Sequence record: OZ335959.1
Direction: 5' to 3' (one strand)
Length of the DNA: 64,000 nt
Source: a phage
Shown here: positions 3,095 through 60,026 of the stretch, piece after piece
How the letters are laid out: each line of letters begins with the position of its first letter
How positions within the stretch are numbered: position 1 is the first letter of the stretch
Notes under the pieces: generated by a model
Told to the model about the DNA's origin: nothing
What the model saw: the letters and a program-made list of their open reading frames with translations, nothing else
The model's database searches: none
Position numbers and translations under genes: made by a program

Positions 3095-3135
3095 TTTCTA
3101 ATCTCCGTAATTCTGTATCAGTAGTTGATAGTTGT

Positions 3136-3165
3136 ATAGTACCACAGTATGCTTTGGTTGTAAAC
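3136..3165 (-). promoter_or_regulatory. Early promoter upstream of motA
   Basis: Minus strand GTTTAC, 18 bp, TACTAT with TGTGG upstream of -10 and A/T-rich UP region. Confidence 0.55.
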
Positions 3166-3185
3166 CGTTTTGTGAAAAAATTTTT

Positions 3186-3216
3186 GAAATAAAAAAGGGA
3201 GAGCCTCGGCTCTCCC
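3186..3216 (-). terminator. Rho-independent terminator after gene 52 / small ORF
   Basis: Minus strand GGGAGAGCC-GAGG-CTCTCCC hairpin followed by TTTTTTATTT. Confidence 0.6.
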
Positions 3217-3221
3217 TAAAA

Positions 3222-3371
3222 TTACTGCATGACTGTGATAACTGTCATGATAACACGTTGAATTCCGAATGCAAGAAGACCTCCTGCTACGGCTGGAACA
3301 ACACCTAAACCCGCTAGTAAAATGCTACCAGATACTAATGCCGCGCTTGTAATACCAATGAATGGACTCAT
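3222..3371 (-). CDS. Small hydrophobic protein, 49 aa (below track length cutoff)
   Basis: ATG overlaps gene 52 TGA (ATGA); translation MSPFIGITSAALVSGSILLAGLGVVPAVAGGLLAFGIQRVIMTVITVMQ is one or two TM helices. Confidence 0.45.
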   Translation of the reverse strand: MSPFIGITSAALVSGSILLAGLGVVPAVAGGLLAFGIQRVIMTVITVMQ

Positions 3372-4696
3372 TTGATTTCCTCTAAATCTTTAGTGTATTC
3401 GGTAACTACATCAGTAGTTTTCCAATATTCGTTTTCTTCTTTCTTAGCTTTAGCTTCTTCAGCAAGTTTCTTTGCTTCGTCGGAAGTCATATGAAAAATA
3501 TTCATTCCAACTAGTTTATCAACATAAGAAGAATACATATCAATTTTAGAAAGTTCTTCGGTCAGTTCTTTGCGAGTTTTACCTTGTACAACAATTTCAC
3601 CTGAAATCACTTTCTTAATGAAATGCGCCTTGGCAAAGGCTAAACGAAATGCTGATTCAGTTTCTTTGATTTTGTTATCAATTCGTTTTTGGACATAAGT
3701 TTTACGAACTTCAACGAAGTCTTTGATTAAATCAACTACGTTATCGTAAACTTGTAGCTTTCCTTTCTCATTAATAACGGTAATATTCTGGGAACGACGC
3801 TCAATCAACCCGAAGTCTTTCATAATTTTTGCATGGCGTTCTTCTTCGTTATCACTCAAAGAGTATTCTTTGCGGAATTTAACTTTGAAGCCAAAGCCAT
3901 GCTCACCACAAGCATCATCCCACGTAATGAAGCCTTTATCTTCAAGCGGGTCTAAGATTTTACTCACATAAGTTTCACGATCATACTTATACGGAATCTC
4001 AGTGATATGCATTTGAGTTCGTGAAGTAAACTTGTACGTTCCACGAATTTCATATTGACCGTCAATTTCAACGACTTCACCACGAAATTCTGGGAATTCT
4101 ACCTTAGGTTTAGTTACTTTCTTTCCTTGAAGAGCTTGCAATACAGCTTTCTTGACAGAAGAAACACTATGAGGAAGAATGTAAGTTGCATAACCAGTTG
4201 CAATACCGGAAACACCATTAAGAAGAACAGTAGGAATAATAGGCAAATAGAAAGCAGGCGGAATGTGTTCTTTATCTTGATGTACCGGAGCATATTCAGT
4301 ATCTTTATATACATTATAGAAATTTTTACTTACACGAGCAAAAATATAACGACTTGCCGCTGCTTTTTGAACGGTACGAGAACCAAAGTTTCCTTGACCA
4401 TCTAACAAAGGAAAGTTATTATTCCAAGTGTTAGCCATCAAAGCACCTGCGTCTTGCGCAGAGTTTTCACCATGATGATATCCAAGGTCTGCTACACCGC
4501 CTGCAATAGAAGCGAGTTTGTGAAACTTATCTTTATTTCCTCGTGCCAAATCAAGAGCTCGAGCAATAACAAATCGTTGAACTGGCTTAAATCCATCAAT
4601 CATATTTGGGATAGCACGATTTTCAACCGTGTACATAGCATAAGCCAATGCTTCATTATCAATGATACTTTTTAAATCGCGATTATTCAGTTGCAT
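3368..4696 (-). CDS. 52: DNA topoisomerase II medium subunit gp52 (GyrA-like)
   Basis: 442-aa ORF MQLNNRDLKSIIDNEALAYAMYTVENRAIPNMIDGFKPVQRF... with type II topoisomerase A-subunit N-terminal motifs; T4 gp52 length. Confidence 0.93.
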   Translation of the reverse strand: MQLNNRDLKSIIDNEALAYAMYTVENRAIPNMIDGFKPVQRFVIARALDLARGNKDKFHKLASIAGGVADLGYHHGENSAQDAGALMANTWNNNFPLLDGQGNFGSRTVQKAAASRYIFARVSKNFYNVYKDTEYAPVHQDKEHIPPAFYLPIIPTVLLNGVSGIATGYATYILPHSVSSVKKAVLQALQGKKVTKPKVEFPEFRGEVVEIDGQYEIRGTYKFTSRTQMHITEIPYKYDRETYVSKILDPLEDKGFITWDDACGEHGFGFKVKFRKEYSLSDNEEERHAKIMKDFGLIERRSQNITVINEKGKLQVYDNVVDLIKDFVEVRKTYVQKRIDNKIKETESAFRLAFAKAHFIKKVISGEIVVQGKTRKELTEELSKIDMYSSYVDKLVGMNIFHMTSDEAKKLAEEAKAKKEENEYWKTTDVVTEYTKDLEEIK

Positions 4697-4700
4697 AAAT

Positions 4701-4841
4701 TTACCATACTAGTGAATGTAGTGCCATAATAACATCAGAAATGAAAAGCACGACTTGAATTAATCCGAACATTACTCCATAATATAGTGCTACCAATAAA
4801 GTAGCAAGGGCTAATGAATAGCCCAAGATTTTCTTAATCAT
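4701..4841 (-). CDS. Small membrane protein, 46 aa
   Basis: Hand-translated MIKKILGYSLALATLLVALYYGVMFGLIQVVLFISDVIMALHSLVW; start overlaps stop of upstream small ORF. Confidence 0.4.
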   Translation of the reverse strand: MIKKILGYSLALATLLVALYYGVMFGLIQVVLFISDVIMALHSLVW

Positions 4842-4992
4842 TAGTAGATAACAACACAAATGTTAAATATGCACACATACCCTGGGCTAAAGCTTGTGAA
4901 AACACACTGCTAGCATCGATACAGATAGTTAAAACACATGCTACTATCCAACAAATAAATGAAATAACTCCTAATAATTTTGCGATATTCAT
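4834..4992 (-). CDS. Small membrane protein, 52 aa (ac-like by position)
   Basis: Hand-translated MNIAKLLGVISFICWIVACVLTICIDASSVFSQALAQGMCAYLTFVLLSTND; lies between stp and 52 as T4 ac does. Confidence 0.4.
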   Translation of the reverse strand: MNIAKLLGVISFICWIVACVLTICIDASSVFSQALAQGMCAYLTFVLLSTND

Positions 4993-4999
4993 ATTTTCC

Positions 5000-6310: not shown

Positions 6311-6410
6311 AGTAAGCGTTTAATACATCAATCATTAAAACGATTGGGAATATACTCAAAACTACTAGTATTATAACTACATTCCATATAGCTTTAACAA
6401 TCTTTTTCAT
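6297..6410 (-). CDS. Small membrane protein, 37 aa (track ORF trimmed to ATG after promoter)
   Basis: Track ORF 6297-6545 contains an early promoter inside its 5' part; ATG at 6408-6410 is preceded by GGAGG; product MKKIVKAIWNVVIILVVLSIFPIVLMIDVLNAYFGFM. Confidence 0.45.
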   Translation of the reverse strand: MKKIVKAIWNVVIILVVLSIFPIVLMIDVLNAYFGFM

Positions 6411-6438
6411 TTTCTGTTCCTCCGTAGTTGATAGGGTA

Positions 6439-6468
6439 ATAATACCACAGAGGAACAGTCTTGTAAAC
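6439..6468 (-). promoter_or_regulatory. Early promoter
   Basis: Minus strand GTTTAC, 18 bp, TATTAT (TGGTATTAT). Confidence 0.5.
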
Positions 6469-6653
6469 AACTTTTTTAAAAATATTCGTAATAAATGTGA
6501 ATACCAATCACCACTGCCGAAACTTGCGCAACCCACCACGCACAAGCAATAAGCACAGAATTCAAAATTTTCATAATAACCTCATTACAAAAGTAAATGT
6601 TAAACAAATTAATGGAATACTAATTAACCAAACAAAACACCACCACAATGAAC

Positions 6654-6917
6654 TCATAGTTCAATCTCAGCGATTTTCATTTCATTACTATTAATAGCCG
6701 CTTTAAGACTATCTGAAAGAATTACATTCCAGTGGTCATTCATATGACCATTAACTAAGCGTGTAATTTCTTCGGGAGTTGAAAAATAAGGCGTATCAGA
6801 CTCCCAATGCGATAATCCCAAGCGAGTATAAATCATACCTTCATCATCGCTAGAATATTCAACTGACACAAACTCATCAGTTATTTTATGTTTAGCGTAA
6901 TAAAATTTAAATTTCAT
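6654..6917 (-). CDS. Hypothetical protein, 87 aa
   Basis: Track ORF with GGAGG SD and own early promoter. Confidence 0.55.
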   Translation of the reverse strand: MKFKFYYAKHKITDEFVSVEYSSDDEGMIYTRLGLSHWESDTPYFSTPEEITRLVNGHMNDHWNVILSDSLKAAINSNEMKIAEIEL

Positions 6918-6944
6918 TTTTACTCCTCCGTAGCTGATAGTTGT

Positions 6945-6974
6945 ATAGTACCACAGTCCTTGTGGTATGTAAAC
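6945..6974 (-). promoter_or_regulatory. Early promoter
   Basis: Minus strand GTTTAC, 18 bp, TACTAT. Confidence 0.5.
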
Positions 6975-7820: not shown

Positions 7821-7843
7821 TAAAACAAAAGGGCCGAAGCCCC
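7821..7843 (-). terminator. Rho-independent terminator (UUCG tetraloop hairpin + U run)
   Basis: Minus strand GGGC-TTCG-GCCC followed by TTTTGTTTT just 3' of the 7849-8043 ORF. Confidence 0.55.
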
Positions 7844-7848
7844 TTATT

Positions 7849-11438: not shown

Positions 11439-11468
11439 ATTATACCACATCCTTGTGGTAAAGTAAAC
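11439..11468 (-). promoter_or_regulatory. Early promoter upstream of rIIA.1/rIIA
   Basis: Minus strand GTTTAC, 18 bp, TATAAT with TGTGG extension; -35 overlaps gene 39 stop. Confidence 0.6.
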
Positions 11469-13288
11469 TATTGGCTCATCCATTCTTTACGAAGGTCAGC
11501 ATTATCTCCCATGAGCATTTCAAAAAGCTCTTTCCAGTTCTCAGGAAGTTTAACAACATCATATACTGGGTTTTGAATCATCTCACGATATTCAGATTTT
11601 TCCAAAGAGCCAAGTCCCTTAATATAACGGATGCTATGTTTAGGTAGAGCATCTTTGGCACTCTCATATTCAGCGACTGTATAAAACCATTCTTGTTTTT
11701 TACCGACCTGAGCGATGATTACAGGAGTTTTGACGAAGCGAATTCTTCCTTGTTCAAACAGTTCTGGCCAATTGCTAAAAAATCCGAGCAGAGAAGGATA
11801 AATGCTTCCTAGACCATCATGGTCAGCATCGGTCATAATAGCAATATTATGATAATTCAAGTTTTCAGCTTTTTCACCAAGAACTAATCCAGTGATTGCG
11901 CAAATATCAAACAGTTCTTTGTTTTTAAGCATATCGGCATAAGACATACCCCAGCTATTAAGAACTTTACCACGCAATGGATAACCACCATGAAGTTCTT
12001 TATCACGAACATCAATAAGATATCCGATAGCAGAATCACCCTCAGTCAAGAAAAGAGTAGTGTCAGCGTCTTTACCGCAAAGATTCGCTTTAATATGTTT
12101 ATGAACCTTAGCTTTAGAAGCCTTTTTAGCTGCTTTAGTTTCAGCTGCTTTTTCTGCAGCCAATTTACGAGCCAAAGCAGCTTCAATAATTGGCATTAAA
12201 ATTGCTTCATTATTTAAAATAGCACGTGAAATCTTTTTAGCATCAAGCTGAATATGACTACGAATTTCACCAAATGGAGAAGTCAAACGCTCTTTAGTCT
12301 GAGAATCAAATCGCATGTTTTTCATATCACGAACAAACATAACGATAGTCAAACATTCTTTAACACGTGCTTTAGTTACATCAATTTTGAACTTGCGTTT
12401 GATTTGTGGAATAAGGTCTTCACAAATATCATCCATAACGCAGTCAATGTGATGGCCACCATTCTTAGTATGAATGTTATTAACGTATGTTAATTGACGA
12501 AAACCATCAGGTGAACGACCAACCGCAATAGAACAATTTTCTTGTTCTTGAACAATAGCATGCTCATCATATTGGCGTGCATATTTCTTAAAATTACCCT
12601 GAACCTTTTTACCATTAAAGGTAAATTGAATATCAGGATAAACTACTGCAAGTGTCTGGAGACGATCCAGTGTAATGTCAAGATAAACTTGAGACAGCTC
12701 ATTAGTTTCAAATGACATAAAATCAGGAATGAAAGTAACACGAGTTCCTTTCCATTTTCCGGGAATATCTTCCCATGATTTATTTTCCATGCCATTTGAA
12801 CAACGAACTACAATATTATTTTGACCGTCGCCAGTTTCACCGACAAACATCACAGAAAAAATGTTAGTTAAACTAGAACCAACACCGTTCATACCGCCAG
12901 TGACGCGTTCTTTATCATCGCCGAAGTTACCACCTGCTTTTGGAATAGTCCAAGCAGCAACAGGACCAGGAATTTCTTCACCAGTAGGTGTTTTAACCAT
13001 CGCTTGTGGAATACCGCGACCGTTATCTTCAACTGTTACCTGATTATTTTTAATGGTAACATTAATTTTATTTGCGAATTTAAACTTAGTACGAATACCT
13101 TCATCTACTGAGTTATCGATAATTTCATCAATAAGCTTAACAAGACCAGGTACATACTGAACACTTTCCCATTTACCAAACAGAAAGCGCTCATGCATTT
13201 CATTAGCGGAAGAGCCAATGTACATGCCGCTACGCTTTTTGATATGTTCAATATCGCTCAGAATTTTAATTTCATTCTTAATCATCAC
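11468..13288 (-). CDS. 39: DNA topoisomerase II large subunit (GyrB-like), unsplit 39+60 form
   Basis: 606-aa single ORF MMIKNEIKILSDIEHIKKRSGMYIGS... with GHKL ATPase and TOPRIM motifs; no interruption equivalent to the T4 39/60 split. Confidence 0.9.
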   Translation of the reverse strand: MMIKNEIKILSDIEHIKKRSGMYIGSSANEMHERFLFGKWESVQYVPGLVKLIDEIIDNSVDEGIRTKFKFANKINVTIKNNQVTVEDNGRGIPQAMVKTPTGEEIPGPVAAWTIPKAGGNFGDDKERVTGGMNGVGSSLTNIFSVMFVGETGDGQNNIVVRCSNGMENKSWEDIPGKWKGTRVTFIPDFMSFETNELSQVYLDITLDRLQTLAVVYPDIQFTFNGKKVQGNFKKYARQYDEHAIVQEQENCSIAVGRSPDGFRQLTYVNNIHTKNGGHHIDCVMDDICEDLIPQIKRKFKIDVTKARVKECLTIVMFVRDMKNMRFDSQTKERLTSPFGEIRSHIQLDAKKISRAILNNEAILMPIIEAALARKLAAEKAAETKAAKKASKAKVHKHIKANLCGKDADTTLFLTEGDSAIGYLIDVRDKELHGGYPLRGKVLNSWGMSYADMLKNKELFDICAITGLVLGEKAENLNYHNIAIMTDADHDGLGSIYPSLLGFFSNWPELFEQGRIRFVKTPVIIAQVGKKQEWFYTVAEYESAKDALPKHSIRYIKGLGSLEKSEYREMIQNPVYDVVKLPENWKELFEMLMGDNADLRKEWMSQ

Positions 13289-13337
13289 TTATCCTCGTTT
13301 GGTTTCGGGAATATTATACTCCGGTAATCATAAAGCT

Positions 13338-13355
13338 AAAGGCCCGAAGGCCTTT
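13338..13355 (-). promoter_or_regulatory. Intercistronic stem-loop (AGGCC-TTCG-GGCCT)
   Basis: Perfect hairpin overlapping the stop of the lipoprotein gene, upstream of a TATAAT-like element before gene 39. Confidence 0.45.
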
Positions 13356-13627
13356 TATTTAAAACGGATAGTCGAATCCTTGAAGAATAGACCAGAACAT
13401 ACGGTTCCTTCTACTTTCTGCCCGGTAGGTCCAATAGCACGAAATCCAGTATGTTGGAAATCATTTTCAGAGCAACCGAACCAGTTATATCCAGTGATTT
13501 CAATATTAGTAAAACCACTTGAAGACAAAACTTTGGTTGCATTATCAGCATCAGTACATCCTGCTAAAGACACTGCTAATACTAATGCTGCGATAGAACG
13601 ATTAATATATTTCATAATTTCACTCAA
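13355..13627 (-). CDS. Small lipoprotein, 90 aa
   Basis: Signal peptide plus lipobox: MSEIMKYINRSIAALVLAVSLAGC followed by TDAD. Confidence 0.6.
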   Translation of the reverse strand: MSEIMKYINRSIAALVLAVSLAGCTDADNATKVLSSSGFTNIEITGYNWFGCSENDFQHTGFRAIGPTGQKVEGTVCSGLFFKDSTIRFK

Positions 13628-14807: not shown

Positions 14808-14905
14808 TACAATTTCCTCATTAATTGAACATTGGAGCGATGCGTTTCAGAAGAGTGGCAGCACCTTTGGCAAATTTTCCATTTCATTCTCCAAGTTATT
14901 TTCTG

Positions 14906-14950
14906 TATCAGTAGTTGATATTGATATAGTACCATAATCAACTACTGATG
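14906..14950 (-). promoter_or_regulatory. Inverted repeat / promoter-like element upstream of cef
   Basis: catcagtagttgat ... atcaactactgatg 14-bp inverted repeat around a TACTAT -10-like core; A11 homopolymer nearby at 14967-14977. Confidence 0.4.
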
Positions 14951-14983
14951 TATATAGTTTTATGAAAAAAAAAAATTTAAACT

Positions 14984-15481
14984 TTATGCACAGCGGGCTT
15001 TGCTATAGTGTTTAATCCAACTTTCGGGAATGACTTTGTATGTTCCTAAAAATACAGCATTGTACAACTTAACACCATCTTCTACCCACTGATCAGTAAT
15101 GTATGCACACATAGCGCGAGTACGGTGTTTTTGAACAACCCCTTCCTCATCTTCAGTAAATTCGAATTCATAAGGAGCAACGAACTTAATAGCTTGACCG
15201 AGTTTCCACTTAAAGTCTACACCTACGTGCGAAGTATCAATCGTTTCAATTCCTTTAGCAGGAACAGCTTTCAAAAACGCAGACTCAAGAAATTTCGCAC
15301 GAACATAGCCAAACTGAGGTTTAGACTTTCCATCTTTAGGAATGATACGCACTTTTACTTCAGAATCTTCATCTTTAACGCCGTGTTTAAGCTGAATGCT
15401 TACAATTTCAACCAATTTTCCTGCTGCTTTAGAACGGGATTTATCAGATACACGAGCAATTTCACCAATATTAATAATCAT
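14984..15481 (-). CDS. MotB-like protein, 165 aa
   Basis: Position and size match T4 motB; shares a C-terminal motif with the next ORF. Confidence 0.55.
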   Translation of the reverse strand: MIINIGEIARVSDKSRSKAAGKLVEIVSIQLKHGVKDEDSEVKVRIIPKDGKSKPQFGYVRAKFLESAFLKAVPAKGIETIDTSHVGVDFKWKLGQAIKFVAPYEFEFTEDEEGVVQKHRTRAMCAYITDQWVEDGVKLYNAVFLGTYKVIPESWIKHYSKARCA

Positions 15482-15557
15482 AGTTATCTCTCACTTGTTA
15501 AAAAGATTTTATACTCCACGGGACCATTATACTCTGGTCCCAAGAGTTTGTAAACTA

Positions 15558-16100: not shown

Positions 16101-16615
16101 AATTGTCTCATTTCAATAAAATCTACAAGTTCAGCATGGGATTTACGGAACATTACTTGGTGTCCGCCAATGATAACTTCATCTTCAGGAACTTCATAAA
16201 TCGCAATGTACATTCCACGATCTTTTAAGTCTTCACGCTCTTCTCGGGTGAACCATCTCATCATATCATATTCACTAGCGAAAGCAAAATGGTATAATGC
16301 AATAAACCGCGATGGAATATACTTTTCAGACGGTGAATAATTTTTATCCCATTTAGTTTTAATAGCATTATTAGCATTTTCAACTAATAACTTATCATCG
16401 TGTGGAATAGGAATACTTTCATGGCTTTCATAATTATCGCTATGATGATGAAATGACGATGAATTAATACCACAAAATTTTAGCCAAGTTCGAGTTTTCA
16501 TAGAATCAAATCCACGATAAGGAGTTGATTGCACGCATAACTCTTGCCTAATTTTCACTATACCACTATCATCATTTAATGCGCTAAACGATGATTCAAC
16601 ACGATAAATTTTCAT
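16097..16615 (-). CDS. Hypothetical protein (about 172 aa after trimming to ATG downstream of promoter)
   Basis: Track ORF 16097-16654 includes the promoter; MKIYRVESS... start preceded by GAGGA. Confidence 0.5.
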   Translation of the reverse strand: MKIYRVESSFSALNDDSGIVKIRQELCVQSTPYRGFDSMKTRTWLKFCGINSSSFHHHSDNYESHESIPIPHDDKLLVENANNAIKTKWDKNYSPSEKYIPSRFIALYHFAFASEYDMMRWFTREEREDLKDRGMYIAIYEVPEDEVIIGGHQVMFRKSHAELVDFIEMRQL

Positions 16616-16642
16616 TTTATTATCCTCAGTAGCTATGGTGTT

Positions 16643-16672
16643 ATAATACCACAACTAACCGAGGAAGTAAAC
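16643..16672 (-). promoter_or_regulatory. Early promoter
   Basis: Minus strand GTTTAC, 18 bp, TATTAT (TGTGGTATTAT). Confidence 0.55.
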
Positions 16673-20501: not shown

Positions 20502-20531
20502 ACTATAACATTTTTACTTCAGCTTGTAAAC
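20502..20531 (-). promoter_or_regulatory. Early promoter upstream of srd
   Basis: Minus strand GTTTAC, 18 bp, TATAGT. Confidence 0.5.
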
Positions 20532-21810: not shown

Positions 21811-21836
21811 GATAGCCTCCGTATACTTCAGAAGCT

Positions 21837-21866
21837 ATCATATCATTGTTAGGAAGGAAAGTAAAC
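21837..21866 (-). promoter_or_regulatory. Early promoter upstream of modB
   Basis: Minus strand GTTTAC, 18 bp, TATGAT. Confidence 0.45.
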
Positions 21867-23704: not shown

Positions 23705-23916
23705 TACAAAAAGCCTCTTTGAAATTCGACTCTTTGAAATCCACCCCAGTCAGTGTATCGCATTTCAGCATTGAACTCGACTGAACCATCTGCATGCATC
23801 ATGAATGAATGCGTGACGATATCACAATCCCAGCTTTTCATACCCCATTTATCAGAGATAGCTTTATCAAGAACCTTCTGGAGGTCTTCATTTGGTTTAA
23901 TCCAACGATTTAACAT
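23704..23916 (-). CDS. Hypothetical protein, 70 aa
   Basis: Track ORF. Confidence 0.5.
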   Translation of the reverse strand: MLNRWIKPNEDLQKVLDKAISDKWGMKSWDCDIVTHSFMMHADGSVEFNAEMRYTDWGGFQRVEFQRGFL

Positions 23917-23977
23917 AGTGCTCTCCTCTATAAGATAATTCTATTATACCATACTTGTTTTGGAAAGTAAACCGGTA

Positions 23978-24007
23978 AAATGAAAAAAGGACTCCCGAAG
24001 GAGTCCT
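23978..24007 (-). terminator. Rho-independent terminator downstream of soc
   Basis: Minus strand AGGACTCC-TTCG-GGAGTCCT followed by TTTTTTCATTTT. Confidence 0.6.
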
Positions 24008-42902: not shown

Positions 42903-43062
42903 ATATCAAGAACCGTCATTGAAATGCAAAATAAAATTATTGAAATAAATCCATCTGGAGTGCTAAAGAACCCAATCCAACATGCTCTAGTGAATAGATA
43001 AAACGCGAGAAAAAGTACCACATATCCAAGAAATATCATTATATCAAACTCCGTATAAAGCT

Positions 43063-43080
43063 AAAGGGCCGAAGCCCTTT
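43063..43080 (-). promoter_or_regulatory. Stem-loop at 3' end of alpha-gt (GGGC-TTCG-GCCC)
   Basis: Perfect tetraloop hairpin overlapping the alpha-gt stop. Confidence 0.45.
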
Positions 43081-44281: not shown

Positions 44282-44305
44282 TTAATATCCTCATTGTTTT
44301 GGTTT

Positions 44306-46696: not shown

Positions 46697-46719
46697 TCCA
46701 AAAAGGGCCGAAGCCCTTA
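46697..46719 (-). terminator. Rho-independent terminator (GGGC-TTCG-GCCC + U run)
   Basis: Minus strand hairpin followed by TTTTTGGATAAT, immediately 3' of the 46717-46917 ORF. Confidence 0.6.
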
Positions 46720-46917: not shown

Positions 46918-47133
46918 TTAAATTTTCCAGTTACCATTTTCATCAATAAATTTAATCCAGTCATTTACTGACCACTTGGTCGTATCGCCTTTTGGAGCAA
47001 CATTTAAAGTGTATAATCCTTGTTTAAAAAGCATGCGTTTGATATTCATATTTTCCTCAGCTGTAACGATAGCACTCGTTTGATTTACGCTTAGCAACCC
47101 ATTGAGAAGTATTATAATCAAAATCATCGTCAA
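46918..47133 (-). CDS. Hypothetical protein, 71 aa
   Basis: Track ORF; hydrophobic N-terminus. Confidence 0.45.
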   Translation of the reverse strand: MTMILIIILLNGLLSVNQTSAIVTAEENMNIKRMLFKQGLYTLNVAPKGDTTKWSVNDWIKFIDENGNWKI

Positions 47134-47395
47134 TGTAAACTGATTTTTTCAACTTTCTTACTTCACCACGTAATTGGCGATTTAGCTCATCTTTAACTTC
47201 TGAATCAATGCCTTTCATTCTACGCCATTTATCAGAGCGAAAAATGTTTTCAACCATATCTTTATGACTTACACCATCAGGAGCTTTACGCTTTCCGAAA
47301 TAGTCATAATCACGAACTTTTAAGTCTTTACGACGATACGTTTTACCCATGGAGTTTAATTTCCTTAGCAACTGAACTAAATACAGCACGGTCAC
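47057..47395 (-). CDS. Hypothetical basic protein, 112 aa
   Basis: Track ORF; overlaps downstream ORF, so start is probably internal. Confidence 0.45.
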   Translation of the reverse strand: MTVLYLVQLLRKLNSMGKTYRRKDLKVRDYDYFGKRKAPDGVSHKDMVENIFRSDKWRRMKGIDSEVKDELNRQLRGEVRKLKKSVYIDDDFDYNTSQWVAKRKSNECYRYS

Positions 47396-47555: not shown

Positions 47556-47585
47556 ATAATACCACAGTTTGAACTTCCTGTAAAC
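47556..47585 (-). promoter_or_regulatory. Early promoter
   Basis: Minus strand GTTTAC, 18 bp, TATTAT. Confidence 0.5.
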
Positions 47586-47683
47586 AACTTTGTGAAAATT
47601 ATTTTAGGGAATGATAAGAAGGGAACGATAGCTTAGAATGGTAATATACAGAATGTGAGAAAGAAAGGCCCAGAGGGCCCGTC

Positions 47684-48623: not shown

Positions 48624-49094
48624 TTAATCATGTTTCCACACCCCATCGGTATTTGACCAAAGTCGCTGATTATCTGATCCTCGCCACAGCTTTTTGGTCG
48701 GAAGATTTTTCTCATACTTCCCATCAATAATAACATCAACATATTTAAGCATTTCTAGTTGTTTAATATCTTCAAACTTATATCCTGTCCACAACCAAAT
48801 GCTTTTATTTGGATAAAGATTTTTTACTGTTTGAACCACAGAGTGAATAACATCTCGGTTATCAGGATAGAGAGGGTCTCCTCCAGTTATAGTTAATCCT
48901 TCTATATAATCATTATTCAAACATTCAATTAATTGTTCCAGTGTTTCACCAGTGAATGGAACGCCATTTCTAGCATTCCATGTTGATTTATTATAACACC
49001 CTTCGCATTTATGCAAACAACCTGTAACGAAAAGAACGACCCTGCATCCAGGGCCATTCACAAAATCGCAAGGATAAAATCTATCATAATTCAT
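48624..49094 (-). CDS. nrdG: Anaerobic ribonucleotide reductase activating enzyme NrdG (radical SAM)
   Basis: 156-aa ORF with radical-SAM cysteine cluster CLHKCEGCYN; T4 NrdG length. Confidence 0.88.
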   Translation of the reverse strand: MNYDRFYPCDFVNGPGCRVVLFVTGCLHKCEGCYNKSTWNARNGVPFTGETLEQLIECLNNDYIEGLTITGGDPLYPDNRDVIHSVVQTVKNLYPNKSIWLWTGYKFEDIKQLEMLKYVDVIIDGKYEKNLPTKKLWRGSDNQRLWSNTDGVWKHD

Positions 49095-50908
49095 TGGTGT
49101 TTAACCCTATGCATGATTTCTTTATTTTTGCCGAGATTAAATCCGCGTTCATTCGGATTTCCCAAATAACCACATGTTCTTCTTATTGTGTTCATCTTTT
49201 TAGGATCAGTTTCTCCACAAATAGAGCAAACAAATCCGTTTTCAGTAGGAGTCATTTCATGGGTACTTCCACACGTAAAACATTTATCTACTGGCATGTT
49301 AACACCAAAATAATCTAAATGTTGTGCAGCATAATCCCATACAGCCTCAAGACCTTTTAAGTTATTTTTCATATCAGGAAGTTCAACATAAGAAATGTGA
49401 CCACCTGTCGCAATGAAATGATATGGTGCTTCTCGAGAAATCTTTTCAAACGGAGTAATATTTTCTTCTACTGAAACGTGGAAACTATTAGTGTACCATC
49501 CTTTATCAGTAACATCTTTTACACTTCCATATTTTTCGGTATCAAGTTTACAGAAGCGATAGCACAGGTTTTCAGCAGGAGTAGAATACAAACTAAAAGC
49601 AAAACCGGTTCTTTCAGTCCACTGCTTAAGATGAGTATTCATTTTAGTTAAAATTTCTTGTCCAATATCACGACCGACAAGAATATTCAATTCGTGAATA
49701 CCAATGTATCCTAGGGACACTGAACTTCTACCGTTTTTAAATAACTCAATTATGTCGTCATCAGGTTTAAGACGAACCCCGAATGCACCTTCTTGGTAAA
49801 GAATAGGAGCAACAGTCGCTTTAACTCCTTTTAAGGAACTAATTCTACACATCAATGCTTCAAAACACAAATCCATTCGTTCATTGAACAATTCGGCAAA
49901 TTTCTGTTCATTGAATTGTGTTCCAATATAAGAATCTAACGCAATGCGAGGAAGATTCAGTGTTACAACGCCAAGATTATTACGTCCATCAAGAATTTCA
50001 TTACCAGTCGAATCTTTCCATACGCTTAAGAAACTACGGCAACCCATCGGAGAAACAGGAATAGATGAACCGGTGATAGCTTTATTGTTCTTAGCTGAAA
50101 TAATATCAGGATACATTCTTTTACTTGCGCACTCTAAAGCAAGCTGCTTAATATCATAGTTCGGGTCATCTTTATAAAGATTAACACCTTCTTCAACGAA
50201 CATAACAAGTTTAGGGAAAATAGGAGTTATCCCATCGCGACCAAGACCTTTAATACGATTTTTCAGAATTGCTTTCTGAATCATTCGTTCAGTCCAGTCA
50301 GTTCCCGTACCAAATGTAATTGTTACAAAAGGCGTTTGTCCATTTGAACTAAAGAGAGTATTTACTTCATATTCATAAGCTTGGAATGCATCGTATACGT
50401 CTTTTTCTGTTTTAGATTGGGCGTAATTCAACGCATCAGCGATTTGCCATTTTTCTGCATCCTCAATGTGTTTTGCATAGGTGCGTTTAACATAAGGAGA
50501 AAGTACTTTATCTACATTCGCAAAAGTCGTTCCGCCATATTGATGAGAAGCAACCTGTGCAGTAATTTGTGCCATAATTGCAGTAGCAACGCCGATTGAT
50601 TTAGGAGTTTCAATCTGCGCATTACCGAGCTTAAATCCATTCTCAAGCATTCCTTTTAAATCTACTAAACAGCAATTAGTAAATGGAAGAGCAGGCGAAT
50701 AATCAATATCATGGAAATGAATAATTCCGCTTTCATGCGCTTTCATAATAAAAGACGGGACCATATTTTTGGCAATGTGTTTAGACACAATACCAGCCAT
50801 AAGGTCCCGTTGAGTTGGAAAAACACGAGAATCTTTATTAGCATTCTCGTTTAAAAGGTCTTTATTAGTTTTATGAATCAATCCTTCAATTTCTTTTTCA
50901 ATTGTCAT
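49091..50908 (-). CDS. nrdD: Anaerobic ribonucleoside-triphosphate reductase NrdD
   Basis: 605-aa continuous ORF; C-terminal zinc site CFTCGSTHE...CSICG and glycyl-radical motif RRTCGYLG. Confidence 0.93.
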   Translation of the reverse strand: MTIEKEIEGLIHKTNKDLLNENANKDSRVFPTQRDLMAGIVSKHIAKNMVPSFIMKAHESGIIHFHDIDYSPALPFTNCCLVDLKGMLENGFKLGNAQIETPKSIGVATAIMAQITAQVASHQYGGTTFANVDKVLSPYVKRTYAKHIEDAEKWQIADALNYAQSKTEKDVYDAFQAYEYEVNTLFSSNGQTPFVTITFGTGTDWTERMIQKAILKNRIKGLGRDGITPIFPKLVMFVEEGVNLYKDDPNYDIKQLALECASKRMYPDIISAKNNKAITGSSIPVSPMGCRSFLSVWKDSTGNEILDGRNNLGVVTLNLPRIALDSYIGTQFNEQKFAELFNERMDLCFEALMCRISSLKGVKATVAPILYQEGAFGVRLKPDDDIIELFKNGRSSVSLGYIGIHELNILVGRDIGQEILTKMNTHLKQWTERTGFAFSLYSTPAENLCYRFCKLDTEKYGSVKDVTDKGWYTNSFHVSVEENITPFEKISREAPYHFIATGGHISYVELPDMKNNLKGLEAVWDYAAQHLDYFGVNMPVDKCFTCGSTHEMTPTENGFVCSICGETDPKKMNTIRRTCGYLGNPNERGFNLGKNKEIMHRVKHQ

Positions 50909-51892: not shown

Positions 51893-51997
51893 TTAAGTCG
51901 TTTATCGTTGGTTCATTATATACTGTTTCTTCATCAGTGTAAACCGGTTCTTCCGGCTCTGGCTCCACAGTTTCCCATCTAGCCGCCCACCAAGGTT

Positions 51998-55533: not shown

Positions 55534-55563
55534 ATTATACCACATCCTTGTGGCAAAGTAAAC
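55534..55563 (-). promoter_or_regulatory. Early promoter
   Basis: Minus strand GTTTAC, 18 bp, TATAAT (TGTGGTATAAT). Confidence 0.55.
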
Positions 55564-56591
55564 TAGTTTAGTGCATTTAGTGCATTGTTCAGTTTAGAAC
55601 GTTGCTTTGTCAGATTTTGAACCCTTGACTGAGCTTGTTCTAACACCTTTTCAGCTTCTAGCACTTCATTGGTCGCTTTAACGAGTTCATCATCTACTGC
55701 CTTAAGAGACTTCTCAATCGCGTCAGCGTGCCATTTTTCTACAGGTTTAAAATTTGAATTTTCAGTAGGAAGAAAACTCACTTTATTAAGTTTACATGCA
55801 TCTATATTGCTTGAGCTATACATCCAAAATTTAGGATCGTTTGATGAGTAATTGGATAAATTTAAATTTAAGTTATCTTGCACTTCTTGCTTTTTCTCTT
55901 GCGTGACTTCGTCCTTTCTCAAAAAATCGTATTTAAATGAAACGATCATATCAAGTTCATACGTTGTTGTATGTTCCCAATTTCGCTCAAAACGAGGTAA
56001 AATCTTAGACTGAACAGCGGCAACAACATCCATATACTTAAATGCTTCTGTCAACTGTGATTTAAGGCATTCGCAAATTGAAAGAGAATTTTTTGTATTA
56101 GGTTTAAAGCTAATTCGCGCAGTTCTGTTATTTTCTTTTAATGGTCTTACTTCCATCTGAAGAGTATAACCATCAAATTTCAGGTTCTTTAAGTTAATGT
56201 CAGAACCTTTTAATCGACTAGCAGTCGACAAAATTTGCTTTAATTGTCTACGGAACAGAGCAATAAATCTCCATTCAATACGATAATGATTTGGATTGAA
56301 AAATCCAGATGATAAATCGACCTTACTTTGACCAACACCTTGAACAAATAGAGGATTTTTATAATCAATAGTTTTACAGAAATTGGTGAGTTGCTCACGA
56401 GCCGTCATTTGTGTAATATACCCTGCTTTACTAAAATTACTTACCCATTCACTGCTATTTAGATATTTAAAGTGATGAATAGCACGATTAACTTTATCAG
56501 GATCTAAATTATTTTCACACAAAAATGTCATAACATTACGAGTATCGCTGGCAGTACGAACCATATCTTCAATTTGAGAACGAGTTTTCAT
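55563..56591 (-). CDS. Hypothetical protein with C-terminal coiled coil, 342 aa
   Basis: Track ORF; C-terminus DDELVKATNEVLEAEKVLEQAQSRVQNLTKQRSKLNNALNALN. Confidence 0.6.
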   Translation of the reverse strand: MKTRSQIEDMVRTASDTRNVMTFLCENNLDPDKVNRAIHHFKYLNSSEWVSNFSKAGYITQMTAREQLTNFCKTIDYKNPLFVQGVGQSKVDLSSGFFNPNHYRIEWRFIALFRRQLKQILSTASRLKGSDINLKNLKFDGYTLQMEVRPLKENNRTARISFKPNTKNSLSICECLKSQLTEAFKYMDVVAAVQSKILPRFERNWEHTTTYELDMIVSFKYDFLRKDEVTQEKKQEVQDNLNLNLSNYSSNDPKFWMYSSSNIDACKLNKVSFLPTENSNFKPVEKWHADAIEKSLKAVDDELVKATNEVLEAEKVLEQAQSRVQNLTKQRSKLNNALNALN

Positions 56592-57954: not shown

Positions 57955-58482
57955 TTATGCGAGTACCGTCTTTAACCGTTCTTCAAACTTCCGAAGAGTA
58001 TTTTGGCGTTCAGCTCTTTGCTTTTTGTAAGTTTCAATACGCTCTGAAATGAGAGAGTATCGTTCATTTACTGATTCTTTCATAAAATCAGGAATTTCAC
58101 GAGAAGCTTTAATCTCGTCAAATTTATCAATAACAGCTTGCTCTTCAGCAATTAAGTTATCATACATTAAAATATCTTTCTTGATGAACTCAATATCTTC
58201 TTGAGTTACACGAGATAATTTAGATGCTTTATCCTTTTTGTACTGTTCGTTAGTATCACGAGACCAGTGTAATGTACGATTTTTATTCGTATTTTTGTAA
58301 ATTTCTACAATACCGATCTCATCAATAATAACGATCCAATTCCAACGGGATTTGTAAATTTGTCCTCCATCAACAGTGATTTCACCTCCGATTGAGATGT
58401 CATTAAAGAACTTGCTTTGCGCTTCAGATTTAAATTTACCATCGTTATAATTTACCAAGTTGAAAATATCTTTAGCGTTCAT
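57955..58482 (-). CDS. Hypothetical protein with C-terminal helical tail, 175 aa
   Basis: Track ORF with own promoter and GGAGG SD; charged helical C-terminus. Confidence 0.55.
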   Translation of the reverse strand: MNAKDIFNLVNYNDGKFKSEAQSKFFNDISIGGEITVDGGQIYKSRWNWIVIIDEIGIVEIYKNTNKNRTLHWSRDTNEQYKKDKASKLSRVTQEDIEFIKKDILMYDNLIAEEQAVIDKFDEIKASREIPDFMKESVNERYSLISERIETYKKQRAERQNTLRKFEERLKTVLA

Positions 58483-58510
58483 TTTCTGTTCCTCCGTAGT
58501 TGATAGTTGT

Positions 58511-58540
58511 ATAGTACCACAGAGGAACAGTCTTGTAAAC
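58511..58540 (-). promoter_or_regulatory. Early promoter
   Basis: Minus strand GTTTAC, 18 bp, TACTAT; repeat module family. Confidence 0.55.
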
Positions 58541-58542
58541 CA

Positions 58543-58857
58543 CTAAAAGAAACTTCTTTCACAATTTTTTCCACTGAACCAGGCGCTCACTGCTTTCTTA
58601 GTCTCAGGAGCAGTGTTATCCATAAACCATTCAAAGGCAGCCTTTTTATGATTCTGGAGAGCTTCTCGGGCTTTAATCTGCTCACGGTCTATTAACACTA
58701 ACATGTGAGCCTTTCTTGTCACCATGGGCTTCTTATGATTTTTTGAATACTCCCAGTCATTTGTCCATCGCATTGTTGTTGCGAACTGAAATACTGCTTC
58801 TTTAATTTTAGTTTCGTAAATTTCACGAGCCTTTGAGTATAACATCACTACCTCCAT
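58543..58857 (-). CDS. Hypothetical protein, 104 aa
   Basis: Track ORF. Confidence 0.5.
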   Translation of the reverse strand: MEVVMLYSKAREIYETKIKEAVFQFATTMRWTNDWEYSKNHKKPMVTRKAHMLVLIDREQIKAREALQNHKKAAFEWFMDNTAPETKKAVSAWFSGKNCERSFF

Positions 58858-58946
58858 TTACCAGTTTAATTCTAGTCATCTTTTTAATGGCAGTCCATAT
58901 AATCTATTTCTGAACTGCCTTTTTGTCATAGAAGTCCTCTTATGAA

Positions 58947-59915
58947 TTATTTCAGAAGAGTAACCTCAGCAATTTCTTCCCAACCGTTTTTGTCGGTCAT
59001 AATAAAGTCAGCAAGATAAAGAGCAGTACGCAGTGAAACATTGCGTAAACGGTTAACATTAACTTTCATCCATGATAATGCTTTATAAGTTTCTTCATCA
59101 GAAAGACCGCGCTTTTGCATCATGTCAGTTGAAAGAATAACATCTTCAACCCTGACCATAATTTCTTCATTAGTGTGAACACCCAAATCTAAATAAACTG
59201 AGCGGGACACTAATGCTTGTAAATGTGGAGCAAGTTTAGTACCACGGTCTAATTCGCGGTCAATATCAACGTTTGTGATAAAAACAATCGTTCCTTTAAA
59301 TTCAAACTCACGCTCAATGCCTTTTTCTTCTAAGTAAGAAGACGCAGTGCTCCAGCAGACTTTACGGGTCTCTCCAGTGTCCAGAGCGGCTTTTAGAAGA
59401 TTAAGAATGTCCATATCAGAGAAAACATCCACATCATCAATCAAAAGGACAGAATTCTCTTCACGATTATTCCAAAGCTGCTCATAAAGACCAATACCAG
59501 AGATTTTACCATTAATGCTTTTATATTCAATGTATCCAATATCATTTGCTTTATTTAAAGCTTTATCTAAAGAATACGTTTTACCAATACCTGCTGCGCC
59601 AGAGATAATTAATGAACGAATATTTCCGTTAATAATACCATTCGTCATCATTCCCATAACATTAAATCTTTTATTAATGCGGGTTTTCATATCTTCATAC
59701 GATTCTTTAACTTCTTCAACTTTTACACCATCATATGAAATATCTGATTTGTAAACCCAAACACCGCGACGTTTACCGTCAATTTCAACAAAAACTTTAC
59801 CATCTCCTTGTGCATCTACCGGAGCATTATCTGGGAACCATTCGCCTAAGAGCTCAAAAGTTCCAGAGATTTCTTTACCGAAGTAGATACCCTTATTGAT
59901 AGTTACAGTTTTCAT
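58947..59915 (-). CDS. P-loop (AAA+-like) ATPase, about 322 aa
   Basis: Walker A GAAGIGKTYS and Walker B VLLIDDVD; trimmed to ATG at 59913-59915 with GGAG SD. Confidence 0.7.
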   Translation of the reverse strand: MKTVTINKGIYFGKEISGTFELLGEWFPDNAPVDAQGDGKVFVEIDGKRRGVWVYKSDISYDGVKVEEVKESYEDMKTRINKRFNVMGMMTNGIINGNIRSLIISGAAGIGKTYSLDKALNKANDIGYIEYKSINGKISGIGLYEQLWNNREENSVLLIDDVDVFSDMDILNLLKAALDTGETRKVCWSTASSYLEEKGIEREFEFKGTIVFITNVDIDRELDRGTKLAPHLQALVSRSVYLDLGVHTNEEIMVRVEDVILSTDMMQKRGLSDEETYKALSWMKVNVNRLRNVSLRTALYLADFIMTDKNGWEEIAEVTLLK

Positions 59916-59948
59916 TTTATTCTCCAAATCGTATCAGTTGATAGTTGT

Positions 59949-59978
59949 ATAGTACCATAAAGCTTTATGCCTGTAAAC
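59949..59978 (-). promoter_or_regulatory. Early promoter upstream of ATPase gene
   Basis: Minus strand GTTTAC, 18 bp, TACTAT. Confidence 0.55.
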
Positions 59979-59998
59979 CGTTTTGTGAAAAAATTTTG

Positions 59999-60026
59999 AA
60001 ATAAAAAAGGGAGCCCGAAGGCTCCC
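59999..60026 (-). terminator. Rho-independent terminator downstream of nucleotidyltransferase gene
   Basis: Minus strand GGGAGCC-TTCG-GGCTCCC followed by TTTTTTATTT. Confidence 0.65.

Follow-up and report, generated by a model that had tools for sequence, protein, structure and literature searches.

We identified, in a 64,000-nucleotide stretch of phage DNA (sequence record OZ335959.1; the window), a dispersed repeat whose copies are very probably sigma-70-dependent, T4-like early promoters, with the promoter and stem-loop composites corresponding to PeSL elements and the most similar copies acting as hot spots of module exchange. The window represents the early region of a Tequatrovirus (T4-like phage) and aligns collinearly with T4 at 93-96% identity; the strong early promoter of T4-like phages is already known. 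The finding is real but ordinary, because the composite has been published as PeSL and tied to the gain and loss of small genes.

Promoter sites on the minus strand

The minus strand carries all 19 exact matches to GTTTAC-N18-TA(C/T)(A/T)(A/G)T in the whole window, against 0.13 expected from dinucleotide shuffles, none of 100 of which reached 19. A two-block weight-matrix (PWM) scan yielded 21 minus-strand sites, adding 21837-21866 and 42124-42153 to the strict matches, and no early-promoter site on the plus strand of the window; both totals stayed the same across thresholds of 12 to 16 bits. The sequence-only reading had reported about 15 sites, which are real and all on the minus strand but too few, and the five copies that it named each contain a core (3136-3165, 59949-59978, 6945-6974, 33503-33532 and 58511-58540). 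Among T4-like loci, 127 of 136 have the motif, essentially always on the coding strand. The predicted promoters and one degenerate copy are as follows (SD, Shine-Dalgarno sequence).

671-700, minus: core, asiA homologue (ATG 639); strict motif, PWM 35.0, SD and ATG 31 nt downstream
3094-3217, minus: composite cassette at motA; strict motif, PWM, hairpin
6410-6468, minus: ndd.4 region, core 6439-6468; strict motif, SD and ATG
6917-6974, minus: 87-aa ORF (phrog_2390), core 6945-6974; strict motif, SD and ATG
11439-11468, minus: core, rIIA.1 homologue (ATG 11413); strict motif, SD and ATG
14881-14988, minus: degenerate cassette copy, repeat family D1; 61% to the reference copy
15481-15555, minus: motB homologue, core 15526-15555; strict motif, SD and ATG
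16615-16672, minus: motB.2 homologue, core 16643-16672; strict motif, SD and ATG
20502-20531, minus: core, srd homologue (ATG 20471); strict motif, PWM, SD and ATG
21808-21866, minus: modB homologue, core 21837-21866, -10 TATGAT; PWM 29.3
23916-24008, minus: mrh.2 homologue, core 23943-23972, with terminator-like hairpin 23987-24008; strict motif, SD and ATG
27263-27292, minus: core, sp (spackle) homologue; strict motif, SD and ATG
27736-27795, minus: dmd homologue, core 27766-27795; strict motif, SD and ATG
33468-33532, minus: T4 Pe26.4, core 33503-33532; T4 start mapped
42124-42153, minus: weak promoter (TTTTAC...TATAGT) in gene 47, T4 Pe35.3; PWM 17.6, T4 start mapped
47111-47140, minus: T4 Pe40.4, 55.4 homologue (start 61 nt downstream); T4 start mapped
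47556-47585, minus: core, 55.6 homologue; strict motif, SD and ATG
51915-51944, minus: motif match upstream of the pin homologue, within the 49.1 homologue; strict motif, PWM 17.9
55534-55563, minus: core, nrdC.4 homologue; strict motif, SD and ATG
58482-58540, minus: nrdC.8 homologue, core 58511-58540; strict motif
59915-60027, minus: composite cassette at nrdC.10; strict motif, SD and ATG, hairpin
63150-63208, minus: mobD.2 homologue, core 63179-63208; strict motif, SD and ATG

A site consists of a UP block rich in A/T (often TTTTCACAAAAC), GTTTAC(A/T) as the -35 element, a spacer of 17 bp, TGn extending the -10, TAYWRT as the -10 element itself, and a leader of 19-55 nt ending in a strong SD, usually GGAG. 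The UP block has an A+T fraction of 0.64-0.91 at most sites, and 16 of 20 have TGn ahead of the -10 element, including eight with the exact TGTGG that had been noted there. An SD and ATG follow 18 of the 19 strict sites at 25-44 nt; at site 47140 this distance is 61 nt. The proposed GGAG(G) leader is borne out by GGAG in the SD region of 13 of 20 promoter-proximal genes and only 7 of 121 other called gene starts. Several promoters reach into the 3' end of the ORF that precedes them. The least certain promoter is 51915-51944, which lacks TGn and an A/T-rich UP block (A+T 0.36) and is conserved in relatives.

The published T4 starts of Pe26.4, Pe35.3 and Pe40.4 (map units 27,044, 35,662 and 41,225; PMC6024815) project onto positions 33496, 42117 and 47104 of the window, exactly 7 nt past the -10 elements, in agreement with the spacing of about 7 nt that had been predicted. 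For Pe40.4, primer extension both in vivo and in vitro has been reported (PMC6024815). The sp-homologue promoter is likely the counterpart of Pe19.8, another named T4 promoter (PMC6024815), as judged from gene position, and the dmd-homologue promoter is likely that of Pe20.3. Many cores, including those of asiA and motA, are the same in T4; across seven relatives the hexamers are invariant and the spacers variable, and the promoter at 11439-11468 is unchanged in all seven. In the OZ335959.1 phage, the three mapped sites would be active by orthology with T4 and the others by their match to the consensus.

Unmodified host RNA polymerase would fire these sites right after infection, and the promoters would head early minus-strand units (asiA, motA, motB, srd, modB, sp, dmd, nrdC.x genes and small ORFs). 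The copies had been proposed to mark boundaries of small accessory cassettes; extra small ORFs do occur at some, but copies also head units with core regulators (asiA, motA, motB, srd, modB, dmd, sp), and one promoter lies deep within gene 47 rather than at a gene boundary. The GGAG leader would act as the ribosome-binding site, and might also be a target of RegB, an endoribonuclease known to recognize such leaders (consensus GGAGRAYARAA; PMC3014915) and later to inactivate early mRNAs. The leader of the Pe26.4 counterpart, GGAGAATAAAA, fits this consensus, and RegB could potentially cleave leaders in the window.

Stem-loops at the promoters

At motA, a terminator-like hairpin with a T-run (3196-3217) is followed by an A/T-rich UP block, the core (3136-3165), a GGAG leader and the ATG at 3094. 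The nrdC.10 cassette has the same kind of order, with a UUCG-tetraloop hairpin and T-run (60008-60027), UP block, core (59949-59978), leader GGAGAATAAAA and ATG at 59915. These two copies had been called near-identical; they are similar, but at about 80-88% identity (99 identical positions over 112-123 nt with gaps, 80% over 76 nt without), and differ in the spacer, hairpin stem and loop. The GC-rich tetraloop terminator described for them is present at both, but only 3 of 21 promoters have such a hairpin with its T-run (3196-3217, 23987-24008 and 60008-60027) no more than 30 nt upstream of the -35 element, so that the terminator half of the cassette is a minority feature. Two further terminator-like hairpins sit 80-90 nt upstream of promoters (33621-33638, 88 nt from promoter 33532, and 47666-47680, 80 nt from promoter 47585). 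In the subset of promoters joined to a stem-loop, the latter is either just upstream, where it would be an intrinsic terminator insulating the unit from upstream transcription, or a hairpin spanning the promoter.

Stable promoter-spanning hairpins were found at eight promoters (z <= -3.9), and strong hairpins in 23% of promoter segments versus 4% of control gene starts. The hairpins at motB (15513-15547; dG -24.4, z -4.03), dmd (27753-27788; dG -18.9, z -3.98) and mobD.2 (63166-63201; dG -19.0, z -3.92) span the -10 element. Four sites place an internal promoter within a hairpin that covers the SD or start. At promoter 6468, the 5' arm of a 15-bp hairpin (6414-6458; dG -23.2, z -5.55, 0 of 200 shuffles) lies in the untranscribed spacer and the SD, GGAGGAACAG, within the 3' arm. 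The nrdC.8 promoter copy is 91% identical to 6406-6472 and has the same SD-covering hairpin (58486-58530; dG -23.2, z -6.32). The hairpin of promoter 16672 (16623-16665; dG -23.7, z -5.49) has the SD GAGGA in its 3' arm, and in that of promoter 21866 (21808-21842; dG -18.0, z -4.93) the -10 region pairs with the SD and start codon. Additionally, the spacers of the 6945-6974 and nrdC.4 promoters contain the palindromes ACCACAAGGACTGTGGT and GCCACAAGGATGTGGT (the latter with fold z -2.32).

A modest lead is the anti-Shine-Dalgarno arm encoded in some of the promoter spacers. In T4, hairpins sequester the ribosome-binding sites of e, soc, 49 and I-TevI (Uzan and Miller 2010, PMC3014915), occluding the SD or AUG on transcripts from upstream, as the geometry of the four window promoters would likewise do; in both cases a promoter inside the hairpin gives transcripts that lack the 5' arm and would be translatable. 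In the T4 genes, however, the internal promoter is late and the blocked transcripts early, whereas in the window the internal promoter is early and the effect is predicted.

Gain and loss of small genes at the copies

The repeats had been proposed as plausible substrates for exchange, to be checked against indel breakpoints, and the proposal holds in part. Cassettes make up 4% of the window yet are touched by 9 of 47 indel events among seven close genomes (p=0.009), but promoter junctions as a class show no excess over other gene junctions (indels at 5/20, 25%, versus 33/120, 28%; p=1.0, with limited power and crude gene calls). The hot spots are the most similar copies. Junction homologies measure 6-23 nt, which is below the length expected for efficient homologous recombination.

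The lack of a class-wide excess suits an alternative in which the early promoters are alike only through functional constraint on strong promoters and have no special exchange role: indels would arise at any gene boundary, from microhomology (ATGAAA, SD) present everywhere, selection would purge gene-breaking events, and promoters would be bystanders or cargo. Consistent with this, 40% of all indel breakpoints fall within 15 nt of a start codon, versus 6% of random positions; many events are homing-endonuclease insertions unconnected with promoters; and several cassette breakpoints are deletions of ORF bodies at 6-8 nt microhomologies just past the ATG, which leave the promoter untouched and make no use of it. 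In the window itself, 6687-6926 is missing in T4 (join, microhomology AAATGAAA) and 33201-33460 in T4 and relative G5 (join, ATGAAAAT), and another promoter-associated indel joins at a 6-nt repeat just past the ATG; the promoter is left intact. The first indel affects the phrog_2390 ORF, absent from T4, where the leader at this locus is of the type found at promoter 59978; the second affects an 85-aa ORF (phrog_4189) driven by the Pe26.4 counterpart and inserted ahead of imm.1.

We nevertheless consider this alternative unlikely, if a serious contender, since events cluster on the most similar copies. Indels affect 4 of the 5 copies named above, which are mutually the most similar, versus 1 of 15 others (p=0.005), and their frequency follows inter-copy similarity (p=0.02). 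In repeat family D1, 5 of 6 copies are affected (p=0.008); the copy at 14881-14988 retains a UP block, a TATAC-type -35, TGG with TACTAT as -10, and a GGAG leader, followed by an 11-codon remnant of an 89-aa ORF that is intact in ESh31 and G5 and likewise a remnant in T4 and G1. The two copies most alike carry inserts, the nrdC.10 copy in 16 of 44 sampled phages (36%, at least four size classes) and the motA copy (+341 bp) in 9 of 35 (26%), versus 0 of 55 at the control nrdC.4 promoter, 55534-55563, which itself resembles the 11468 copy (97% identity over 32 nt, 55534-55565). Relatives stack 0-3 extra small ORFs at the nrdC.11/nrdC.10 junction, most with their own promoter copy; G1, G4 and G2 have one additional ORF of 75 aa and a second promoter at the motA junction, and G5 a 329-bp insert directly upstream of the sp-promoter -35. 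Furthermore, the break in homology at the promoters of motA and nrdC.10 lies within the -10/initial transcript block, with overlaps of 17-23 nt, relatives contain chimeric cassettes in which the upstream half is the same and the leader different, and PeSL-PeSL recombination has been shown by experiment in RB49/phi1 (PMC2839356).

We favor exchange at the most similar copies, where small ORF modules, often with their own promoter copy, have been inserted, deleted or swapped within the Tequatrovirus population, presumably through recombination. Hot-spot copies share their longest blocks over the UP/-35 region and over the -10 together with the initial transcribed sequence, TACTATACAACTATCAA. The joins lie at short conserved stretches, namely the -35 edge, the -10/initial transcript block, the SD or ATGAAA. 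A dedicated recombinase acting on the stem-loop, as at integron attC sites, was raised as speculation by the PeSL authors and would fit the recurrence of a GC-rich hairpin family in the window; it is very improbable, given breakpoints scattered over the -35 edge, -10/initial transcript block, SD and ATG rather than at one fixed site, the few promoters that such a hairpin adjoins, and an ORF content that matches the T4 early region, with no integrase-like gene seen in the window.

Relation to known promoters and cassettes

T4 early promoters are described as UP/-35/TGn/-10 (Hinton 2010, PMC2988021), and the window sites share this build, the 17-bp spacer, the restriction to the early-transcribed strand and the genome positions; the sequence-only reading of a T4 early-promoter architecture is correct. 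There is no difference of substance, spacers and some leaders being off by a few bases; T4 lacks the two small ORFs (6654-6917 and 33211-33468) that window promoters drive. MotA-dependent middle promoters also have a sigma-70 type -10, often with TGn (PMC2988021), but the sites are almost certainly not of that kind, as every one has the GTTTAC -35 with a 17-bp spacer, the MotA-box core TGCTT is absent from all 21 spacers, and three are T4 promoters of the early class.

The composite of promoter and stem-loop is what Arbiol et al. 2010 (PMC2839356) and Comeau et al. 2014 (PMC4122927) published as the PeSL element of T4-type phages; in the PeSL model, it serves as an exchange point of small gene cassettes. 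The PeSL consensus for T4/PST, TTTACW-N17-TAYWAT (PMC4122927), is the window motif. Shared features include the early promoter, the A/T-rich upstream block, a stem-loop of variable position, the SD plus ATG, scarcity within the conserved replication core (from 33.5 to 47.1 kb, the window has one weak site), and indels that distinguish close relatives at cassettes or near them, where crossovers fall between the -10 and the ATG. Unlike PeSL, about 9 of the 21 window promoters have no significant stem-loop within 90 nt; in the other 12 it spans the promoter (8), is an adjacent terminator (3) or lies 88 nt upstream (promoter 33532), and promoter 47585, with its hairpin 80 nt upstream, would be a thirteenth. 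Also unlike PeSL, the junction-level test gave no class-wide breakpoint excess, and hot spots are confined to the most similar copies.

In bringing along their own expression signals, the small accessory genes are reminiscent of lambdoid-phage morons and integron gene cassettes. In contrast to these, the window has no integrase or attC-type site, its genes are oriented as their neighbours, and the common flanking signal is the promoter itself.

Early promoters of the window

The dispersed element is real and occurs far beyond chance expectation, and its interpretation in the sequence-only reading, as T4 early promoters that plausibly serve the exchange of accessory genes, is essentially right, both halves being already present in the literature. 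Four qualifications apply: a terminator accompanies few copies, units with core regulators are included, the link to exchange holds for the most similar copies only, and the joins have short homologies.

In the window, the motif GTTTAC-N18-TA(C/T)(A/T)(A/G)T matches exactly at 19 places, without exception on the minus strand; shuffles give an expectation of 0.13, and a chance origin is rejected on these numbers. A weight matrix derived from the 19 strict sites, with variable spacing permitted, identified 21 minus-strand sites and none on the plus strand, which confirms and extends the original count of about 15. Sites are named here by the upper (-35 edge) coordinate of the promoter core; the five copies first singled out (3165, 6974, 33532, 58540 and 59978) are real and belong to the dispersed repeat families D1 and D2. 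The two sites added by the weight matrix are:

21837-21866, minus strand, upstream of the modB homologue
42124-42153, minus strand, weak TTTTAC site within gene 47

The spacer between -35 GTTTAC(A/T) and -10 TAnnnT measures 17 bp in all 19 strict sites and both near matches. TGn precedes the -10 in 16 of 20 sites, and the A+T content of the UP region is at least 0.64 in 18 of 20, with a window average of ~0.66; the A/T-rich upstream block, recurrent among sites, is frequently TTTTCACAAAAC. Site 51944 has neither TGn nor an A/T-rich UP region. A Shine-Dalgarno (SD) sequence and ATG lie 25-44 nt downstream of 18 of the 19 strict sites and 61 nt downstream of the remaining one (47140). The genes 3' of the promoters include homologues of asiA, motA, motB, srd, modB, sp and dmd; the promoters head units with core regulators as well as accessory cassettes. 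The stretch from gene 43 to gene 55 (33.5-47.1 kb) has a single site, the weak 42153, and the other 20 are spread over the ~50 kb outside it. Among seven close relatives, the -10 and -35 hexamers are constant and the spacers variable, and 127 of 136 loci from T4-like phages in several genera have the motif, in essentially every case on the coding strand. A spacer palindrome, (A/G)CCACAAGGA(C)TGTGGT, is common to three promoters (6953-6969, 11447-11462 and 55542-55557), and the cores at 11439-11470 and 55534-55565 share 97% identity over 32 nt within unrelated flanks.

T4 early promoters are a textbook case of very strong sigma-70 promoters. They have been described as UP/-35/TGn/-10 "uber" promoters used by the unmodified host polymerase (PMC2988021), and the T4 regions starting at Pe26.4, Pe35.3 and Pe40.4 map, with primer-extension support, to 27,044, 35,662 and 41,225 (PMC6024815). 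Via alignment, these positions correspond to 33496, 42117 and 47104 in the window, each exactly 7 nt past the -10 of its site (33532, 42153 and 47140, respectively). The expectation that transcripts start ~7 nt past the -10 is therefore borne out by orthology with T4 at three sites, the weakest included, and the proposed architecture (-35/-10 with a 17-bp spacer and TGn, on the minus strand, in line with the early, counter-clockwise transcription units, upstream of early genes) holds. Judged by sequence, the window sites are T4 early promoters.

T4 middle promoters, which have a MotA box centred at -30 instead of a -35 element, are rejected as an alternative because no spacer carries a MotA box: the TGCTT core is present in none of the 21, and the -35 GTTTAC is present in all (as the near match TTTTAC at 42153). 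A transposon or MITE is likewise rejected, as terminal inverted repeats and target duplications are lacking and the copies occupy conserved positions as apparently functional promoters.

The analysis provides a correct regulatory annotation of the window phage, with 21 early promoters and the leaders and hairpins that belong to them, and sets the phage within a picture that is well described. Promoter features were sought in copies of the T4 reference records NC_000866 and AF158101, which list only CDS and a few other features, and an Rfam search of the full window returned no family matches.

Indel breakpoints and gene exchange

The window is part of a T4-like phage genome; about 200 Tequatrovirus records match a 20-kb query from it at 95-99% identity. 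T4 is collinear with the entire window (93-96% identical); in T4 coordinates the match begins at 160,512, crosses the rIIA origin and stops at 58,760. As in the T4 early region, nearly all window genes lie on the minus strand. The T4 homing-endonuclease genes segF, mobB, mobC, I-TevII and mobD and the nrdD intron are all missing from the window, which explains many of the window-versus-T4 indels, at the following junctions:

24298-24370
44272-44297
49074-49094
50370-50373
61043-62024

One 606-aa ORF at 11468-13288 encodes the large topoisomerase subunit, and the split genes 39/60, mobA, 60.1 and the gene-60 bypass segment of T4 (~1.1 kb) are absent. At 24891-24912, the window lacks the dam methyltransferase gene that in T4 occupies ~900 bp between genes 56 and 61; T4 and two of the five aligned Tequatrovirus contigs (G2 and G3) have an insert at this junction, and Shigella phage ESh31, G1, G4 and G5 appear to lack dam, since no event was seen at this junction. 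At 30739-31684, a 282-aa ORF (30828-31676) replaces T4 segA and beta-glucosyltransferase (1.9 kb); its ESh31 homologue carries the annotation glucosyl transferase, suggesting that the DNA glucosylation type of the window phage differs from that of T4.

We aligned the window to T4, ESh31 and the five contigs; the breakpoint test rests on these seven genomes because the viral contig collection contains only about five Tequatrovirus contigs. From the alignments we collected 47 distinct events (indels or replacements, each ≥40 bp), many of which are T4 homing-endonuclease or intron insertions (mobA, segF, segA, mobB, mobC, I-TevII and mobD). Nine of the 47 have a breakpoint in a cassette (promoter core, upstream block and leader to ATG, sometimes with a hairpin), where 3.6 are expected (2.5x; cassettes cover 4.0% of the window; p=0.009). 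A start codon is no more than 15 nt away for 40% of breakpoints versus 6% of random positions, and promoter-bearing junctions are not hit more often than other gene junctions (5/20 versus 33/120, p=1.0). Because the gene calls, made from ORFs, are crude (certain starts are wrong and some of the small ORFs spurious), we ran the junction test at three gene-size cut-offs, and the result did not change. The signal is concentrated among the mutually most similar copies: the five named copies were hit in 4/5 cases versus 1/15 for the others (p=0.005), hits correlate with how closely a copy resembles its best partner (p=0.02), and five of the six members of family D1 are hit (p=0.008). A link between the repeats and gene exchange appears to hold at the most similar copies but not across the promoter class, which shows no excess of breakpoints over other gene junctions, and the joins have short homologies. 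A site-specific recombination system is rejected because crossover points vary.

Two locations are hot spots. At the motA promoter (3165), G1 and G4 carry an extra 75-aa ORF and a second promoter; a 23-nt run is common to both leaders, and homology to the window ends inside TACTATACAACTATCAA. In an even sample, a 341-bp insert occurs here in 9 of 35 Tequatroviruses. At nrdC.11/nrdC.10 (59978), the window, T4, G1 and G3 have no extra ORF, ESh31 has one, G2 two and G4 three, most of these modules with their own promoter copy, and 16 of 44 Tequatroviruses, sampled evenly from the phage collection, have inserts, which fall into at least four size classes. The control promoter 55563 has an insert in 0 of 55 phages, also evenly sampled. 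All variable ORFs belong to phage families of unknown function. Chimeric cassettes exist, as the T4 ndd.6 cassette joins an upstream half like that of window site 6974 to a leader of the 59978 type.

Three cassette-associated events are deletions of an ORF body at 6-8 nt microhomologies just past the ATG, with the promoter intact:

6687-6926, ORF-body deletion
33201-33460, ORF-body deletion
~14881, remnant of an ORF-body deletion

Behind intact promoters there remain 11 codons of an 89-aa ORF (window 14845-14881) and 8 codons of an 87-aa ORF (T4 ~167,000-167,030), remnants indicating that accessory ORFs have been deleted at both places with promoter and leader retained.

Some relatives show further changes at the cassettes. 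In G2 (IMGVR_UViG_2974787500), short deletions remove the hairpin 3' side, T-run, UP block and -35 at both most similar cassettes (homologues of window 3165-3200 and 59978-60012), with endpoints differing between the two; shortened junctions also occur in the Shigella phages Sfk20 (750 versus 801 bp) and SP21535 (759 versus 801 bp). These could reflect recurrent promoter loss or assembly artefacts at hairpins. In G1, G2 and G4, which carry the 75-aa insert, the motA-proximal promoter is GTTTACTTCTGCTTTAAACATGATACTAT; it may be a dual early/middle promoter, because the -35 GTTTAC is followed by a MotA-box-like TGCTTTA. At window position 55495, similarity ends in a few phages ~10 nt into the nrdC.4 homologue, right past the start codon served by 55563, which suggests gene replacement or strong divergence starting at the cassette.

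Stem-loops and leaders

The sequence-only reading placed a GC-rich tetraloop terminator immediately upstream of the promoter. Such a hairpin with a T-run, at most 30 nt upstream of the -35, is indeed present at three promoters, and most copies lack it:

3196-3217
23987-24008
60008-60027

Two further promoters have a terminator-like hairpin within 90 nt upstream of the -35, and seven others on the transcribed strand stand apart from promoters. The pair described as near-identical, 3165 (motA) and 59978 (nrdC.10), does show strong resemblance (99 identical positions over 112-123 nt) but, at 80% over 76 nt ungapped, falls short of near-identity. A second dispersed repeat consists of GGGC(C/Y)-UUCG-GCCC tetraloop hairpins (families D3 and D5), located mostly 3' of core genes, away from promoters; a PeSL (promoter-early stem-loop) paper recalls that GGGC/GCCC motifs are involved in about half of 13 T4 deletion mutants. 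The D3/D5 hairpins are at:

7828-7845
13331-13360
36408-36421
38355-38368
43056-43085
46704-46717

Very stable hairpins form in 8 of 20 folded segments from -35 to ATG. Seven of these promoter-spanning hairpins have z-scores of -3.9 to -6.3, with 0-1 of 200 shuffles equally stable, and the eighth nearly duplicates one of these. The 5' arm falls within the spacer or -10, untranscribed from the own promoter, and the 3' arm within the leader. Among more distant T4-like loci, 23% of 261 unique promoter-to-ATG segments reach z ≤ -3 versus 4% of 103 non-promoter gene starts (p=5e-6); strong hairpins are specific to promoter cassettes. The promoter-spanning hairpins were also compared for covariation within close relatives: 87 of 128 pairs are invariant, 15 show one-sided and 3 two-sided changes, 4% of cells are broken, and paired positions evolve no slower than unpaired ones.

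Of 20 promoter-proximal genes, 13 have GGAG in the SD part of the leader, versus 7 of 121 other called gene starts. T4 RegB endoribonuclease targets GGAG in early intergenic regions, with strong sites fitting GGAGRAYARAA (PMC3014915), a consensus fully matched by the leaders of 33532 and 59978 (GGAGAATAAAA). We infer that GGAG leaders of the window phage would be cleaved by RegB.

The sole lead beyond the known picture is a testable regulatory idea that we put forward tentatively, considering it possible but somewhat doubtful: at some early promoters, the untranscribed spacer might encode an anti-SD arm, such that only own-promoter transcripts are translated. [quoted passage not shown] The hairpin 3' arm covers the SD at the candidate sites 6468, 16672 and 58540, and also at 21866, where the arm includes the -10 (z of the candidate hairpins, -4.9 to -6.3). 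Spacer:own-SD duplexes with dG ≤ -17 occur in 4 of 87 independent cassettes versus 0.09 expected (p=3e-6), their sequences being unrelated, and a spacer pairs more favorably with the initial 16 nt of its own transcript than with those of others (p=0.005). A class-wide permutation of spacer against own SD, with related cassettes strictly removed, gave no preference for the own SD (p=0.45). If the proposal is correct, protein synthesis would be strictly tied to the 2-3 minute life of early promoters.

Relation to PeSLs and other hairpins

In T4-type phages, PeSLs are published composites of an early promoter and a stem-loop, and such cassettes have been proposed as the linkers through which T4-like phages shuffle accessory genes as modules. 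The published T4/PST consensus, TTTACW-N17-TAYWAT (PMC4122927), is the motif reported here for the window sites. The definition allows the stem-loop upstream of the -35, between the boxes, overlapping a box or downstream of the -10 (PMC2839356), and the positions in the window fit it. A promoter joined to a stable stem-loop is found at ~12 of 21 sites and not at the rest (3 adjacent terminator hairpins, 1-2 within 90 nt, and 8 promoter-spanning with z ≤ -3.9); as in PeSLs, all 19 strict sites have an SD and start codon at the element's 3' end, and early promoters are concentrated in hyperplastic regions and scarce in the conserved core module. In the PeSL model, indels and replacements between close relatives break at the elements (PMC2839356, PMC4122927), and recombination between flanking elements yields mini-circles, whose reported crossover zones, between -10 and ATG, match those of the window (PMC2839356). 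Our counts add a quantitative caution to this model: breakpoints favor gene starts generally, cassettes are exceptional only if two copies have long blocks in common, and joins in this region use very short homologies.

The PeSL papers take the stem-loops as terminators or attenuators and make no mention of translation (PMC2839356, PMC4122927); under the anti-SD proposal, the "SL" of PeSLs would gain a translational role in place of the terminator role. The SD-covering geometry of the e, soc, 49 and I-TevI hairpins is similar to that in the window, but those hairpins involve late promoters and the ones in the window early promoters, so that, if the proposal holds, the same hairpin logic would reach from late to early promoters.
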